NCBI GenBank assembly: GCA_963701025.1
Contig: OY969557.1
Span: 442,042 to 506,041, forward strand
Source of the DNA: an uncultured bacterium
GTDB taxonomy: Bacteria > Patescibacteriota > Minisyncoccia > Phycocordibacterales > PALSA-1337
DNA: 64,000 nt
Direction: 5' to 3'
Numbering within the stretch: position 1 is the first letter of the stretch; the number at the start of each line of letters is the position of its first letter. The notes beneath the pieces are model-generated. The model saw nothing but the letters and a program-made list of their open reading frames with translations. It was not told the origin of the DNA and ran no database searches. The position numbers and the translations under genes were made by a program. This document shows, piece by piece, positions 36,819-44,469 of the stretch.

Positions 36819-39149
36819 ATGTGCGATAATGTCGGCATGATATTGGACGCCTCGATATCCGAACAATTCCGCATCACCCCGATGCAGAAAGCGGCTCTGA
36901 AGAAGCTCGGCATGGAGACGATCCGCGATCTGCTCTATCACTTCCCCGTCCGCTACGGCGACACGGCCGAAGCAAGGAACATAGATTCGCTGGCCCAAGG
37001 CGATACGGCTGTCATATTCGGGAAAATAACTGGCCTCAAGGCGAGCAAAGGATTCAAGACAAAGATGACCATGGCCGACGGCTACGTGGAAGATGAGACT
37101 GGCCGAGTCCACTGCGTCTGGTTCAACCAGCCCTACCTGGCCAAGATGACGCCCGAAGGAGTGCTCGTGCGCATTGAGGGAAAGATATCGCAGAGGAGAA
37201 AGAAGCAGGTAGAAGGAAGTATGGAGAAAGAAGAAAGCGGTAAGGAGAAAGGGGGTGGCGAACTGTACTTCTCCAACCCAAAGCTGGAAGTGGTGAATAA
37301 AGTGCCCATAGGCGTCGGTGATTCGCTTTTCGGCGCGGAAGGCGAAGACCATGCCCTATATCCGGTGTATCCGGAGTCGCGCGGCATCACTTCGAGCTGG
37401 CTTTACCACGCCATCCAAAAGATATTCAAAAGCGGCATATTGAATGAGATGGCCGACACTTTGCCGGGACACATCCTGGTCAAGTATCACCTGCCGAGCC
37501 TGAAGACCGCTCTCGTCTGGATACACGCCCCGCACAAGCGCGAAGACGCCCTGTCGGCCCGCAAGCGTTTTTCATTCGAGGAGATATTCACCATCCAGCT
37601 AGGGAAACAACAGGCGAGGGCGGAATACGAAGCCCATCCGGCATTCGCCGTGGAGACCGACGACGCTCACGTGGATGAATTCATCCGGCGCTTCCCCTTC
37701 CAGGCGACCGACGCCCAGCGCCGGGCTATCGGCGTCATAGTAGACGACATGCGCCGCGATCACGCCATGTCGCGCCTCTTGGAAGGAGACGTTGGCTCGG
37801 GCAAAACGGCCGTAGCCGCGGCAACGGCGTACGGCATCATCACTTCGAAGCCGCCGAAAAATACCGCGAATGTATTGGCAAAAGCGGCGAGCGGATCCGG
37901 CTTCACTCTGGCCAAGTCAGCCAGCGCCGCTGGCCGCGGAAATCTCCAAGTGGCCTACATGTGCCCGACCGAGATCCTGGCCACCCAGCAATTCGAGTCG
38001 TTCATACAATACTTTTCATACATGCCCATCCAGATCGGTCTCATCACCGGCTCCGGGTGCCGCAAATTCCCCTCCAAGGTCAATCCAAAGGGCTCGACGG
38101 ATATATCGCGTGCGCAATTATTGAAATGGGTCGAGAGCGGCGACATCCACGTCCTCGTCGGCACCCACGCTCTCATCCAAAAATCCGTCAAATTCAAGAA
38201 CCTAGCTTACTCCATCATCGACGAGCAACACCGGTTCGGCACGGCTCAACGGGCGGCGCTCATCAGGAAAAATCAATCGTCCTCCGGCGCAGGCACGAGC
38301 GGCGCTCTCGCCCCGCATCTTCTTTCCATGACCGCGACTCCCATACCGCGGACGCTCGCTTTAACCTTGTATGGCGACCTCGATCTGACCCTGCTCGACG
38401 AATCGCCGGCTGGCAGGAAGCCTATCATCACTGAACTGGTCCTGCCGGACGGCCGCCAAGAGGTCTACGAGAAAGTCCGCCGCGAATTGGCCGGAGGCCG
38501 TCAGGCATACGTCATCTGCCCGCGTATCGATGAACCGGACCCGGACAAGGAGCTCGCTTTGAACGCCAAATCGGTCAAAGAAGAGGCCAAACGATTGAAA
38601 AGATCTGTCTTTCCAGAATATGAGATCGGCGTACTGCACGGCAAGATGCCGGCCGCGGACAAGGAAAGCGTCATGGCCGATTTCAAAGACGGAAAGATAC
38701 GGATCCTTTGCGCCACGTCCGTGGTCGAGGTCGGAGTGAATGTGCCGAACGCGACCGTGATATTGATCGAAGGAGCAGAACGATTTGGCTTGGCGCAATT
38801 GCATCAATTGCGAGGCAGAGTGATGAGAAGCACGCATCAGGCCTATTGCTACGCCTTCACCGAGACTGACTCGGCTAAGTCCATAGAACGGCTGAAAGCC
38901 CTGCGGAATGCCAAGAACGGCTTCGAGCTGGCCGAGCTAGACCTGGCACAGCGCGGCTCCGGCGCCCTTGCCGGCATGCGCCAATGGGGCGTCTCCGACG
39001 TCGCCATGGAAGCTTTGAAGAATTTAAAGATGGTCGAAGCCGCCCGGACAGAGGCTATACGCCTCATAGAAGAAGACCATGAATTGTCCCGCTATCCCGA
39101 CCTCAAGAAAGAAGTAGCCGCGCGAAAGAAAGATCTCCACTTCGAGTGA
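36819..39149 (+). CDS. recG: ATP-dependent DNA helicase RecG (with GA-rich in-frame insert)
   Basis: Wedge domain, DEAD-like helicase motifs (GDVGSGKT, DEQHRFG), C-terminal helicase domain. Confidence 0.9.
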   Translation: MCDNVGMILDASISEQFRITPMQKAALKKLGMETIRDLLYHFPVRYGDTAEARNIDSLAQGDTAVIFGKITGLKASKGFKTKMTMADGYVEDETGRVHCVWFNQPYLAKMTPEGVLVRIEGKISQRRKKQVEGSMEKEESGKEKGGGELYFSNPKLEVVNKVPIGVGDSLFGAEGEDHALYPVYPESRGITSSWLYHAIQKIFKSGILNEMADTLPGHILVKYHLPSLKTALVWIHAPHKREDALSARKRFSFEEIFTIQLGKQQARAEYEAHPAFAVETDDAHVDEFIRRFPFQATDAQRRAIGVIVDDMRRDHAMSRLLEGDVGSGKTAVAAATAYGIITSKPPKNTANVLAKAASGSGFTLAKSASAAGRGNLQVAYMCPTEILATQQFESFIQYFSYMPIQIGLITGSGCRKFPSKVNPKGSTDISRAQLLKWVESGDIHVLVGTHALIQKSVKFKNLAYSIIDEQHRFGTAQRAALIRKNQSSSGAGTSGALAPHLLSMTATPIPRTLALTLYGDLDLTLLDESPAGRKPIITELVLPDGRQEVYEKVRRELAGGRQAYVICPRIDEPDPDKELALNAKSVKEEAKRLKRSVFPEYEIGVLHGKMPAADKESVMADFKDGKIRILCATSVVEVGVNVPNATVILIEGAERFGLAQLHQLRGRVMRSTHQAYCYAFTETDSAKSIERLKALRNAKNGFELAELDLAQRGSGALAGMRQWGVSDVAMEALKNLKMVEAARTEAIRLIEEDHELSRYPDLKKEVAARKKDLHFE

Positions 39150-39162
39150 CCTTGACAAATCA

Positions 39163-39759
39163 ATGGAAAAGAGTATCTTTTCACCTTGGAGGTCCTGGAT
39201 CGTACATTCAGGAAAAATGTTTGAAATAAAAAACGTAGTCATATGTCGGAGGACAATCATTATGCAAAAGATACACAGGAAATTGCCGAACCCCGTCAGC
39301 ACATTGAACAAGATTAACGGGATGTTCCATCAACTGCTTTTGAGACACCAGAACCTGAAAGCATACCTGAAGAGGAATGCCGAGCCGTTTTGGGAGTTAC
39401 TGACCTCGAAGGCGGCCGCGAATCACATGCGGAGAACCGAGCTTATTTATGTGCTCGAGCGCTTTGATCTGAACGACGGCAGCAGCATCACCATTTCCAT
39501 CGTCTTTCCTCTCGCGGGCATGCCGAGCATCATTCTGACGAAATTCGAATTTGACGCGAACGTTGAAGCGATGGTCCATCACCAGATCGGCTACGAGAAG
39601 CTGCAGACCATCAGCCGTTTCATCTGGCAAAAATTGCTCTTTCTCAGCAAGGGGACGTCGGTCCTTCTCGGAAACATCGTCGCACACTTCAGCCTGCATA
39701 AAGTGTGCCCGACTCTGATGGCGTTCGTGAATCCCCTGTTAACGACCTCTGTACCTTGA
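39163..39759 (+). CDS. hypothetical protein (AT-rich island)
   Basis: ORF in a lower-GC segment; no motif recognised. Confidence 0.4.
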   Translation: MEKSIFSPWRSWIVHSGKMFEIKNVVICRRTIIMQKIHRKLPNPVSTLNKINGMFHQLLLRHQNLKAYLKRNAEPFWELLTSKAAANHMRRTELIYVLERFDLNDGSSITISIVFPLAGMPSIILTKFEFDANVEAMVHHQIGYEKLQTISRFIWQKLLFLSKGTSVLLGNIVAHFSLHKVCPTLMAFVNPLLTTSVP

Positions 39760-40020
39760 ATACTGGACGTATTTCCGGTTTCCACCAGACTGTCACTGCG
39801 CACTGCGCGGCGACGGTCTTTTTTAAATGTCCCCCAGAGCGAGCCATACCTCGAACTTGGGACAGAATTCTTACTACTTTGGCACGGTTAAATGAGCAGG
39901 GTTTGCTTCCTGATTTAAGTGCAATCGCTGGTTTACAGGGGCATGATAGCAAAGAGGAGATTTAGTTGAAGACGTGGAGGTTTGTCGGAAGGGGCAAAAG
40001 AAACACTCCTTGTCTTTAAA

Positions 40021-40674
40021 TTACTTGATAACCATGGCCGTTTTATCTCCGTGGCAGATTAAGCTTTTCATATCCCAGGCAAGATAACGCATATATGTTT
40101 GATCATCCTCAGTCGCCTCGCTGGTAATAAGTTTCTGGATGCTTTTGAGAAAATACCCCCGTGCCGATATCGTAGCCTCGCCGGCAGTATGACCCTTGGC
40201 CAAGGAGACGATGACGTGATTAGCCGGTGTCAGAAACATATCTGCAGTTTTGTCTCCGAGTGGCCGGCTCATTTTGTCCGGTGATATGAAGAATATGAAA
40301 TCCTCTTCATAGCCAATATAGGCGCTAGCACCAGCTTTGATAGCAGCCGGTCCAAGCATTTGACCCGAACTGCAGGACAAGGCGTATGTGACCATGTCCT
40401 TCAAAACACCTTCGTTCTTACCGGCCACAACGAGTATTTGATTGTTATGTCCGGTCACAACATCGGGACCACCGTGACCATTCAGGAAAATCAAGGACGG
40501 ACAATGCTTCTGGATCATACTATCTAGAACCGAGGAGATGGCTCGTTCTTTGGCAAGAACAATGAACTGAAGGTTCTTTGACTTCAATTCTTCGATAGTC
40601 TTCACAGCCCAAGCGGAAATGTATCGTGTTGTCGAGTCAGATTTAGGAGTTGTTACTAGTGCTATATTGCTCAT
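40021..40674 (-). CDS. caspase-like (peptidase C14/CHAT-fold) domain protein, putative
   Basis: LIFLNGHGG (His) and, about 44 aa later, YALSCSSG (Cys), matching the caspase His-Cys dyad spacing. Confidence 0.35.
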   Translation of the reverse strand: MSNIALVTTPKSDSTTRYISAWAVKTIEELKSKNLQFIVLAKERAISSVLDSMIQKHCPSLIFLNGHGGPDVVTGHNNQILVVAGKNEGVLKDMVTYALSCSSGQMLGPAAIKAGASAYIGYEEDFIFFISPDKMSRPLGDKTADMFLTPANHVIVSLAKGHTAGEATISARGYFLKSIQKLITSEATEDDQTYMRYLAWDMKSLICHGDKTAMVIK

Positions 40675-40885
40675 AGAATATGCCTTCTTTCATTGACCGC
40701 AGAAAATCCATCTCGATTGCAACAATCTTCTTGCCAACCTCATCGTCTTTTTTGACATGTTCAATAAGTCTGTCCTTAGTGAATTCACCGGACGAACCAA
40801 TTGACATCTCCTTGTCTGCCGGGAGTTTCTGCAGACGGGCTATTACCAAATCAATGATTTCTTTTTCTGTGTCCGTAGTATTCAT
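40643..40885 (-). CDS. small hypothetical protein (80 aa), operon partner
   Basis: Overlapping start/stop with both neighbours. Confidence 0.4.
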   Translation of the reverse strand: MNTTDTEKEIIDLVIARLQKLPADKEMSIGSSGEFTKDRLIEHVKKDDEVGKKIVAIEMDFLRSMKEGIFYEQYSTSNNS

Positions 40886-41073
40886 ATAATTTTAAGCTCT
40901 ATTAGCTTCTCGACAATGATATCGCCTAATTTGGTGTCGTTGCTCACTTCAATATACGCGACATTCCAGGTAATTGGCCCTTTATCGGGCAACACGAGAA
41001 TTACTTGGTCCCGTAGACCAATAGGCAGGTTGGCATACACACTGAAAAATTTGTCCTTGGGAAGTGTTGTCAT
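40882..41073 (-). CDS. small hypothetical protein (63 aa), first gene of 3-gene operon
   Basis: ATGA overlap with the downstream gene. Confidence 0.4.
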   Translation of the reverse strand: MTTLPKDKFFSVYANLPIGLRDQVILVLPDKGPITWNVAYIEVSNDTKLGDIIVEKLIELKII

Positions 41074-41296
41074 ATCCTTTGTTGCTCATATTATACCATG
41101 TGTAGCTATTGGTCAAAGACGGTAAATCACATATGTGCTTACAAAAAATATTAGGGGAAGGGTGCTAAGAACGACACTCTTCTACGAGTTCAATTGTTCC
41201 CTGTGATGTTCTCTTGATAACATTTTTGCGGATGAGTGCGTCCACTACTTTCATGCCAGACCAACATCTCATAGACTTTGAGATCGTGTAATCAAG

Positions 41297-41350
41297 TGTT
41301 TACCTGTTTACCTACTTTTACCTCATTTTGACCCTATGCTGTTTACCTAA
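41297..41350 (+). repeat. iteron-like GTTTACCT x4 direct repeats adjacent to tRNA-Ile
   Basis: gtttacctgtttacctacttttacctcattttgaccctatgctgtttaccta. Confidence 0.5.
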
Positions 41351-41423
41351 AACATCGAACCTGAATTTCATTCCATTGTTGAGCCACTTATGGAGTGAAT
41401 ATTTGCCGTTTCTACCAAGTTTG

Positions 41424-41497
41424 TCCGCCCTCTTGGATTCGAACCAAGGACCGCAGAGGTATAAGCTCTGTGCTCTAACCAACTGAGCTAAGGGCGG
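41424..41497 (-). tRNA. tRNA-Ile(UAU)
   Basis: Anticodon loop CUUAUAC. GGTTCGAATCC T-arm. Acceptor stem CCGCCCT/AGGGCGG. Confidence 0.75.
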
Positions 41498-41594
41498 CTA
41501 TCTATAGCGTTCGCTTATCATAAGTCAAAGACCCTTCATACACAACTGCGGAGAACAAAAAGCCGCACCATGGTGCGGCGGCGGGAAGAAACTC

Positions 41595-42368
41595 TCACGT
41601 GACACGGAGGACGATGCCGGCGTAATTGTCATCCGATTTCTCCTTGCAGAGATCACTCAAGACGACAGTGGCTTTTGCGGCACTCATGCTCAAAAGACTC
41701 AAGAACGTCATGCCCGGGGAGAGCAACGCGTCCCACAAGCCGTCGGTGCCGACGACCAGAACCTCGCCTGGTTCGATGGATTCGTCGGTGCAGATCGACG
41801 GCTCATGTATGACTCCGGCTGATCGGAAACGACCGTCGCCGATGCTCCTGGTGAGCATCAAGGCACATTCGTCGCCGAGACACAGCTTGCCGAGACAGAC
41901 TTCAGCCTCGGGTATGCGCTTGAATGACTGTTTCGCCCGTTCCCGCTCGACCTCTACGGAGAATCGGTGCAAGGTCGTGATCTTCGCTGTCCTGGAAGGA
42001 TCCTTTGAGATCCGATGAACCTCGACATCTCCGACATTCGCCGAACACATCTTATAATCCGATATACGGATGACGGTCGCGGCAACGCCTGTGCGTTCTC
42101 CGAATGATTCATCGACGGCTTTATCAAGCTCGGCGAAAGCCGGGCCTGCGACGAGACCAAAGCCTTCGGGATCGCAAGACATAAAACGGACGGCTCGGCC
42201 GGCGATGCCTTTCAAGACCAGGTCGGCTGCTTTTTTGCCATTTTCCCCGTGTCCGTCGCATAGGAGCACGCAAATGCCGTCTTTGAAGTCAATGACCTTC
42301 ATCTGATCCTCCATCGTCGGTCGCTGTCCTTGGCCGAAAAACAAACCGCGTTCGATCTTCATTGTCAT
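41595..42368 (-). CDS. PP2C-family Ser/Thr protein phosphatase
   Basis: LLCDGHG, TDGLWD, DDNYAGIVL motifs. Confidence 0.8.
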   Translation of the reverse strand: MTMKIERGLFFGQGQRPTMEDQMKVIDFKDGICVLLCDGHGENGKKAADLVLKGIAGRAVRFMSCDPEGFGLVAGPAFAELDKAVDESFGERTGVAATVIRISDYKMCSANVGDVEVHRISKDPSRTAKITTLHRFSVEVERERAKQSFKRIPEAEVCLGKLCLGDECALMLTRSIGDGRFRSAGVIHEPSICTDESIEPGEVLVVGTDGLWDALLSPGMTFLSLLSMSAAKATVVLSDLCKEKSDDNYAGIVLRVT

Positions 42369-42454: not shown

Positions 42455-44377
<1,923 letters not shown>

Positions 44378-44384
44378 GGTGTGA

Positions 44385-44469
44385 TTATATAGGCAAGCGA
44401 GGACTAATGGCAACTAGTTGACATAGAGTCCGAGCGAAGACTATATATGAGCGAAGCGATTATACATAA
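44385..44469 (-). promoter_or_regulatory. second copy of the pilM-type promoter module, upstream of ftsH
   Basis: gtgattatataggcaagcgaggact..caact.gtt.acatag.gt.cgagcgaagactatatatgagcg.agcg.ttata. Confidence 0.55.

Follow-up and report, generated by a model that had tools for sequence, protein, structure and literature searches.

A window of 64,000 nt (the whole stretch of DNA analysed here; assembly GCA_963701025.1, contig OY969557.1, positions 442,042 to 506,041) from an uncultured bacterium of the Patescibacteriota (Minisyncoccia; Phycocordibacterales; PALSA-1337) carries three tightly overlapping minus-strand genes between recG and a tRNA-Ile(UAU) gene. They encode proteins of 63, 80 and 217 aa and are called the trio below. 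We propose that the three genes and their promoter (~41143-40031, minus strand) form a cassette that is autonomous, moves horizontally and works as a self-contained protease-based conflict module, and we rate the chances of this reading as about even. The trio was kept as a unit in bacteria and archaea, its largest protein was predicted to fold like CHAT and separase proteases, and the site that it occupies held unrelated cargo in related genomes. The features on which this proposal is built are listed here.

36819..39149, plus strand: recG (776-aa open reading frame, ORF), the conserved left boundary of a variable slot
40021..40674, minus strand: 217-aa protein, predicted stand-alone mini-CHAT (caspase/separase-like, clan CD) cysteine protease with the candidate dyad H67/C101 (AlphaFold2 and Foldseek)
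40643..40885, minus strand: 80-aa partner, acidic (76 homologues, none with a Pfam domain)
40882..41073, minus strand: 63-aa partner, first gene of the operon (63 homologues; AlphaFold2 pLDDT 93)
40031..41143, minus strand: cassette of promoter and three genes, delimited by blastn as the stretch with DNA homology to the nearest relatives
41088..41116, minus strand: predicted cassette promoter, TTGACC (41116..41111) and TGGTATAAT / TAATAT (41098..41088), from a consensus scan and the sequence
41423..41497, minus strand: tRNA-Ile(UAU) (ARAGORN and Rfam), the conserved right boundary, with its 3′ end toward the cassette

The 63-aa and 80-aa genes overlap by 4 nt (an ATGA start/stop), and the 80-aa and 217-aa genes overlap by 32 nt. 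An earlier note on this DNA, made from the sequence of the window, had described such an operon, and its coordinates and overlaps were confirmed. The gap between recG and tRNA-Ile is 2273 bp, and the distance from the 3′ end of the tRNA to the first start codon of the operon (41073), on the upstream side of the operon, is 350 bp. The note had also called this islet lower in GC, which was borne out: the GC content was 0.481 at 39150-40020, 0.444 in the trio and 0.384 at 41074-41422, against 0.527 in the whole window. About 7% of same-size windows had a GC content as low as that of the trio, so its deviation is moderate. The islet sequence was identical in another, independently listed contig (L017).

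The trio as a conserved unit

Hidden Markov models of each family were run on six-frame translations of 97 loci, each of which had been retrieved through any one of the three proteins. The order 63, 80, 217, on one strand and with the genes abutting or overlapping, was found at every locus that included upstream DNA (~90 loci), and the same arrangement was seen at two further loci (L178 and L181). The co-occurrence of the three genes, which the earlier note had suggested as a check, was thus observed at every related locus where the upstream DNA was available.

The carriers of the trio belonged to many lineages of Patescibacteria, to DPANN archaea and to two Bacteroidota; some taxon labels of metagenome-assembled genomes (MAGs), such as 'Gammaproteobacteria', were taken as recorded. 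Among the DPANN archaea, the trio was present on two complete chromosomes, CP066684 (Aenigmatarchaeota) and CP010426 (AR20), and Nemorincola caseinilytica JCM 32105 was a cultured carrier in the Bacteroidota. A motif scan of GTDB matched at least 163 of 185,579 species, which is a lower bound. The divergence of the three proteins was correlated pairwise (rho 0.29-0.48), and the correlation was highest between the 80-aa and the 217-aa protein (0.48).

No fourth conserved gene was found: the largest cluster of flanking genes recurred at 7 of 78 loci and had no fixed position. A Pfam census of the 139 immediate neighbours in 76 loci returned 147 families, none of which occurred more than three times and most of which were housekeeping (e.g., LepA/RecJ, DHO dehydrogenase and tRNA synthetases). 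Defence- or mobility-related families were few (ResIII and Phage_integrase, twice each). The trio of Nemorincola (L010:1-12192) was located in an element that also encodes a large serine recombinase, helix-turn-helix (HTH) regulators, ArdC and a Dcm methylase, and a pair of an AAA_15/AAA_21 ATPase and a UvrD-like helicase (Gabija-like) followed directly downstream. Other mobile or defence-like contexts comprised AbiEii plus Imm5 in WWE3, an N6_N4 methyltransferase plus ResIII, and a Zn_ribbon_recom protein. A tRNA gene lay within 400 bp of the trio in 6 of 60 loci; with ~4% expected by chance, any enrichment next to tRNA genes is at most slight.

None of the three proteins was matched by a model in scans with Pfam, NCBIfam, PADLOC and PHROG, and searches of the full-text literature turned up no account of the family. 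Two contigs of one MAG (CAWDHP01; L077 and L086) each carried a trio with identical gene lengths of 66, 73 and 214 aa; the genome could have two copies, or one contig could be a duplicate from binning.

Fold and candidate active site of the 217-aa protein

By its predicted fold, the 217-aa protein is a caspase/CHAT-type protease core with an essentially invariant His/Cys pair. Its AlphaFold2 model, built from a 28-sequence alignment, had a pLDDT of 94.5 and a pTM of 0.92, and a single domain spanned the full length of the protein. When the model was searched against the PDB with Foldseek, ranks 1-7 were all CHAT or separase proteases, with probabilities of 0.98-1.00, and the matches below rank 7 had probabilities of at most 0.44. 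The best match was the SAVED-CHAT protease 8tl0 (E 2.6e-7, probability 1.00, TM-query 0.61); yeast and human separase (5u1s and 9hn5) and the type III-E TPR-CHAT protease (7y84) were also among the top matches. The structure search thus pointed to a protease fold, and no non-protease fold was assigned.

The motifs FLNGHGG and ALSCSSG contain the candidate dyad residues H67 and C101, respectively. In the model, H67 is located directly after the strand 61-65 (IFLNGHG), and C101 follows the strand 95-99 (TYALSC), which is the arrangement of clan CD. The catalytic positions are H2003/C2029 in human separase and H585/C627 in TPR-CHAT (PMC9729208). The spacing of 34 residues between H67 and C101 is intermediate between these two, in agreement with the caspase/CHAT-like spacing that the note had pointed out. 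Among 270 full-length relatives, C101, G66 and G68 were conserved in 270/270 and H67 in 269/270; two other positions, D/E13 (270/270) and D141 (268/270), were also conserved.

Close homologues of the 217-aa protein numbered 72, of ~215 aa each and all without annotation. When 1.84 billion representatives were searched with the family profile, 2283 clusters (50% identity) matched, and for 350 of these E was <= 1e-30. The family is basic, with a mean charge of +3.9 and a pI of 8.3. A profile search against PDB sequences returned no CHAT chain at E <= 10, and Pfam, with its CHAT model included, gave no protease family even at E <= 1. FG-GAP_3, the only Pfam match at E <= 1, was judged to be due to chance. 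The clan membership is therefore based on structure, and the proteins form a separate sequence family.

The two small partner proteins

The note had called the partners of the large protein uncharacterised, and this still holds for the 63-aa and the 80-aa protein, which had no family match. No homologue of either protein carried a domain annotation, and profile searches of both families against PDB sequences gave no meaningful match. Pfam searches at E <= 10, run with 63 members of one family and 22 of the other, produced scattered chance matches, with no HTH or ribbon-helix-helix (RHH) domain among them. The AlphaFold2 model of the 63-aa protein (pLDDT 93) had the topology a1-b1-b2-a2-a3; its fold search returned no PDB or BFVD match with E < 0.9, and no winged-helix or other DNA-binding fold.

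Mean charges of -1.2 (63 aa) and -3.1 (80 aa) mark both families as acidic on average. Nearly all homologues of the 63-aa protein stop at a near-invariant LKII C-terminus. A motif G-x-(I/F)-T...D-x-x-G had been spotted by eye in both small proteins, and it was paired in an hhalign alignment of the two families; the evidence for paralogy was not significant (probability 3.8%, E 0.011).

Limits of the cassette, promoter and signs of mobility

DNA similarity to the nearest relatives extended from ~70 nt upstream of the first start codon to ~10-20 nt before the stop codon of the 217-aa gene, and the flanks were unrelated. The blastn identity was 79.5-81.5% over 41143-40042 (L098 and L099) and 41123-40042 (L100), and 75% over 41063-40031 (L018). 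The promoter-like site lies 15-20 nt upstream of the AAGGA-ATG start, where the AAGGA Shine-Dalgarno sequence stands 3-4 nt ahead of the ATG at 41073. The block from TTGACC to TGGTATAAT was kept along with the genes in four relatives (L098, L099, L100 and L001), and no conserved operator-like repeat was found beside the promoter in the comparison of nearest relatives.

The upstream element followed the domain of the host, and the coding part was collinear. An extended -10 element, TGnTAnAAT, was usual in bacterial loci, and TTTATAA was found in archaeal loci (e.g., L039 and L054). The GC content of the trio was lower than that of its flanks in 60 of 74 loci, with a mean difference of -3.2 points (Wilcoxon p 9e-10), and it followed the GC content of the host in part (slope 0.68). 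The identity was 0.53-0.55 among archaeal copies and 0.50-0.52 between archaeal and bacterial copies. The similarity of archaeal to bacterial copies was thus almost equal to that among archaeal copies, which indicated that there is no deep split between the domains. The genomic contexts of the trio were unrelated from locus to locus.

The insertion slot between recG and tRNA-Ile

Relatives for the synteny comparison were pulled from metagenomes by RecG similarity. The gene order tRNA-Ser - recG - tRNA-Ile(UAU) - ftsH was maintained in loci whose RecG was 56-83% identical. The gap between recG and tRNA-Ile varied greatly, the shortest being 13 bp (L106), 19 bp (L123) and 26 bp (L110) and the longest 5.7 kb (L115) and 5.9 kb (L120). 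The cargo of the slot (L101-L136) included an NYN-domain protein (L133), a Fic/DOC protein with a C-terminal winged helix (L120), a 925-aa TraG/VirD4-like ATPase (L113/L114) and membrane proteins (L101). Runs of type IV pilin-like (pseudopilin) genes were also found as cargo (L115, L173 and L119). The trio was present in only one of ~40 close RecG relatives.

Four relatives had a direct copy of the 3′ half of tRNA-Ile(UAU), from the anticodon loop to the 3′ end, which was 35-45 nt long and lay 81-82 nt downstream of the tRNA, at 82 nt in L122 and L131.

L122:10562-10684, tRNA 3′-half copy, perfect, 41 nt
L131:1808-1930, tRNA 3′-half copy, perfect, 41 nt
L136:10327-10453, tRNA 3′-half copy, 45 nt, 96%
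L116:4255-4390, tRNA 3′-half copy, 35 nt, 89%

By eye, the ~41-nt spacer was alike in these four relatives. The copies look, from their sequence, like attachment (att)-type scars. The variable gap with its unrelated cargo and the tRNA 3′-half copies in relatives together make the slot a tRNA-linked insertion hotspot. The earlier proposal of a tRNA-linked islet was therefore upheld when its boundaries were checked against relatives, in which the site measured 13-26 bp or held other cargo of up to 5.9 kb. In the window itself, the 3′ end of tRNA-Ile occurred only once, even when up to 3 mismatches were tolerated, and no flanking direct repeat was found.

The small pair ahead of another enzyme

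The closest RecG relative (L167; 93% identity over the C-terminus) carried the two small genes in a different operon.

L167:416-3312, 61-aa protein (63-aa family, E 5e-18), 89-aa protein (80-aa family, E 1e-18), 262-aa protein, Dcm and Vsr

This operon starts ~25 nt after the 3′ end of tRNA-Ile(UAU), in the same orientation and convergent with recG, and its 61-aa and 89-aa genes overlap by 4 nt. The Dcm gene encodes a C5 DNA methyltransferase (PF00145, 2.6e-74). The 262-aa protein had no NCBIfam or PDB match, and its position beside Dcm and Vsr makes it a putative restriction endonuclease; the idea that it is a diverged CHAT protease was rejected (hhalign probability 0.1%). This operon suggests that the small pair can serve another dangerous enzyme. 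Since the pair occurs there without the protease, a regulatory or neutralising role fits it better than that of mere protease substrates. In this closest relative the pair stands before a putative restriction-modification (R-M) operon, and for this reason it may be a portable regulatory front end.

Proposed role and alternative explanations

In the proposed conflict module, the basic 217-aa protease would be the effector, a bare catalytic domain without a sensor or regulatory domain. By analogy with known systems, the two mostly acidic small proteins would be its obligate bound regulators. Their action could be that of an inhibitor or adaptor, like securin on separase, or that of a switch or a substrate to be cleaved, like Csx30 in Craspase. 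Infection, loss of the cassette or a similar trigger would release or activate the protease, which would then cleave cellular targets and cause growth arrest. A basic effector with small bound regulators, if both parts are as supposed, would make the trio a self-contained module of the abortive-infection or addiction type, and we infer a defence or addiction role on this ground. A bolder version can be offered tentatively: the trio is possibly an autonomous minimal protease-based immune or addiction system that crosses the domain boundary between the candidate phyla radiation (CPR) and DPANN, and the small pair a new portable sensor or regulator for unrelated toxic effectors, the mini-CHAT protease here and R-M in the sister genome.

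Several observations weigh against a conflict module. The neighbours of the trio in the 76 loci were mostly housekeeping genes, with no enrichment of defence islands. Mean pairwise identity was 44-52% in all three proteins, which means slower evolution than in typical antitoxins or immunity proteins. The trio had no PADLOC, PHROG, Pfam or NCBIfam match, neither small protein had a recognisable DNA-binding or antitoxin domain, and a search of IMG/VR viral contigs turned up no relative of the trio proteins. No integrase or recombinase ORF (39150-41422) and no att repeat were found in the window, and the swapped effector was seen at a single locus, L167.

Part of these observations would suit regulated proteolysis of a housekeeping kind, in which the trio would be a maturation or quality-control module of CPR/DPANN symbionts, with a specific cellular target and with small proteins that resemble adaptors or chaperones. 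The housekeeping neighbours, the good conservation of all trio proteins including the small ones, and the lack of known defence models and of viral (IMG/VR) copies are in line with this, as is the concentration of the family in organisms that share a lifestyle. We nevertheless regard it as unlikely. The trio is sporadic (at least 163 of 185,579 GTDB species by the motif scan), it is missing from all but one of the ~40 close RecG relatives, and it occupies a hypervariable slot, with a context that changes in every lineage. Its GC content is below that of the host, it occurs in both domains without a deep archaeal/bacterial split, and in the Bacteroidota isolate it is housed in a recombinase-bearing element.

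The small proteins could also be transcriptional controllers that never contact the protease and that time a dangerous enzyme after entry into a new cell, like the C proteins of R-M systems or omega of omega-epsilon-zeta. Their place directly after the conserved promoter, the controller-like position of the pair before the putative restriction endonuclease-Dcm-Vsr operon in L167, and a helix-rich pattern (read from the sequence and the 63-aa model) that loosely resembles three-helix DNA-binding domains would fit such a function. Against these stand the average acidity of both families, the lack of HTH or RHH Pfam matches at E <= 10 (63 and 22 members), a 63-aa model without a match to a DNA-binding fold, and a promoter without a conserved operator-like repeat; we consider transcriptional control by the small proteins quite unlikely.

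It is very unlikely that the 217-aa protein catalyses transpeptidation or ligation, as legumain and GPI8 transamidases do, or processes its partners, with the small proteins as substrates or tags: the invariant Cys/His dyad, the transamidases (MEROPS C13) that clan CD contains, the strict co-encoding of the small proteins and the LKII ending of nearly all 63-aa homologues would allow it, but the nearest structures are hydrolytic CHAT and separase proteases and not C13 enzymes, no Gly-Gly or other known tag terminus is present, and the small pair without a protease in L167 is hard to square with mere substrates.

If the trio is indeed a conflict module, it would be among the smallest protease-based ones. 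It would then also mark gene flow between episymbiotic bacteria and archaea and offer a compact model for the restraint of a caspase-like protease. With Nemorincola caseinilytica JCM 32105, a cultured carrier is at hand for experiments on this question.

Other elements in and around the islet

The remaining elements of the islet and the gene next to it are as follows.

39262..39759, plus strand: putative orphan ORF of 165 aa (198 aa if it starts at 39163; gene call in the identical contig L017)
41165..41272, minus strand: 35-aa ORF of doubtful significance (ORF call)
41298..41348, plus strand: GTTTACCT direct repeats, with exact copies at 41298, 41306 and 41341
41595..42368, minus strand: PP2C phosphatase gene (Pfam PP2C, 1.4e-15), between tRNA-Ile and ftsH

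The 165-aa ORF, the 35-aa ORF, the GTTTACCT repeats and the PP2C gene were all absent from the RecG relatives. The isolated hypothetical gene of the note is present as an ORF (39163..39759) and was called in L017, but it is an orphan, and its cluster at 90% has one member. It had no Pfam, PADLOC, PHROG or NCBIfam match and was absent from all related loci; it belongs to the variable slot and not to the cassette. For the short ORF, the comparison with the N-terminus of a DNA-binding protein or antitoxin found no support. The ORF had no family match, its exact sequence was absent from a collection of 15 billion proteins, and it was not kept upstream of the trio elsewhere.

The note had counted four iteron-like copies of GTTTACCT. 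Three were exact, and the fourth, TTTTACCT at 41316, had one mismatch and was read from the sequence by eye, with no search result behind it. The copies are clearly clustered, since ~0.83 exact copies are expected on both strands of the 64-kb window and three were observed within 51 bp. The nearest relatives lacked them ahead of the trio, and no relative had them downstream of tRNA-Ile. Judged from the sequences compared, the repeats and the 35-aa ORF lie outside the cassette, and the repeats are local to this genome.

The PP2C gene had no counterpart in ~30 syntenic relatives, whose gap between the tRNA and ftsH ranged from 26 bp to ~700 bp. Its site lies on the 5′ side of the tRNA and appears to be another variable slot. 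The tRNA was the sole genuine match in the Rfam scan; a 'Plastid-ycf2 5UTR' hit at 41423-41497 on the plus strand, antisense to the tRNA, scored 37.5 bits, below the gathering score of 65.7, and was regarded as spurious. The ftsH gene (minus strand, ~42455-44413) had three frame changes at 43330-43530 within its AAA+ domain (frame 2 -> 0 -> 1 -> 2), and it is one intact ORF in a relative (L103). Either indel errors in the assembly caused the breaks, or this essential gene is a pseudogene here. As the gene is interrupted here and intact in relatives, the assembly may hold indel errors, and the ORF calls of this record should be used with caution.

Comparison with known systems

CHAT and caspase-like proteases are effectors in CRISPR type III-E, SAVED-linked and gasdermin systems, in which they are large and fused to sensors. 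The trio protease resembles the CHAT immune proteases (TPR-CHAT/Csx29 of the type III-E Craspase, SAVED-CHAT 8tl0 and the gasdermin-associated CHAT) in its caspase-hemoglobinase/CHAT fold and in a His...Cys dyad placed after beta-strands. The substrates or regulators of these proteases are dedicated proteins encoded alongside them, such as Csx30 (PMC9729208). In contrast to Craspase and SAVED-CHAT, the trio protease is a bare core of ~215 aa without a TPR, SAVED or other sensor domain, and no CRISPR or cyclic-nucleotide genes were found among its neighbours (78 loci, none recurrent). It also differs from CHAT immune systems in its partners, which are two novel small proteins, and in a family distribution centred on CPR bacteria and DPANN archaea.

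Separase is a eukaryotic cell-cycle enzyme of >1400 aa. It was among the top structural matches, and the idea of a small co-expressed inhibitor parallels securin, which inhibits separase (PMC9729208). However, neither small protein is similar to securin in sequence or structure, and inhibition by them would be a presumed function. Tripartite toxin-antitoxin (TA) systems, such as omega-epsilon-zeta and toxin-antitoxin-chaperone, also have two small upstream genes and a larger enzyme gene, overlapping and translationally coupled, and they share with the trio its mobility, sporadic distribution and the opposite charges of small and large components. Unlike them, the trio has no homology to TA families, no detected DNA-binding domain and a higher conservation than usual antitoxins.

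The cassette shares several traits with tRNA-associated islands: its place on the 3′ side of a tRNA gene, a site that relatives leave empty or fill with other cargo, a GC content below that of the genome, and copies of the tRNA 3′ half in relatives. The window differs from such islands in having no integrase, flanking direct repeats or mobility genes, and the islet is only 2.3 kb long. Iterons are repeats of ~17-22 bp beside a rep gene or origin, whereas the units here are 8 bp long, not conserved and without a rep gene nearby, so the term does not suit them. To our knowledge, few conflict systems have been described from CPR bacteria or DPANN archaea. The catalytic domain of the CHAT/separase type is a known one; what is new is the minimal stand-alone architecture, the two dedicated partners without a fold match, the cassette-like mobility and the concentration in CPR and DPANN.

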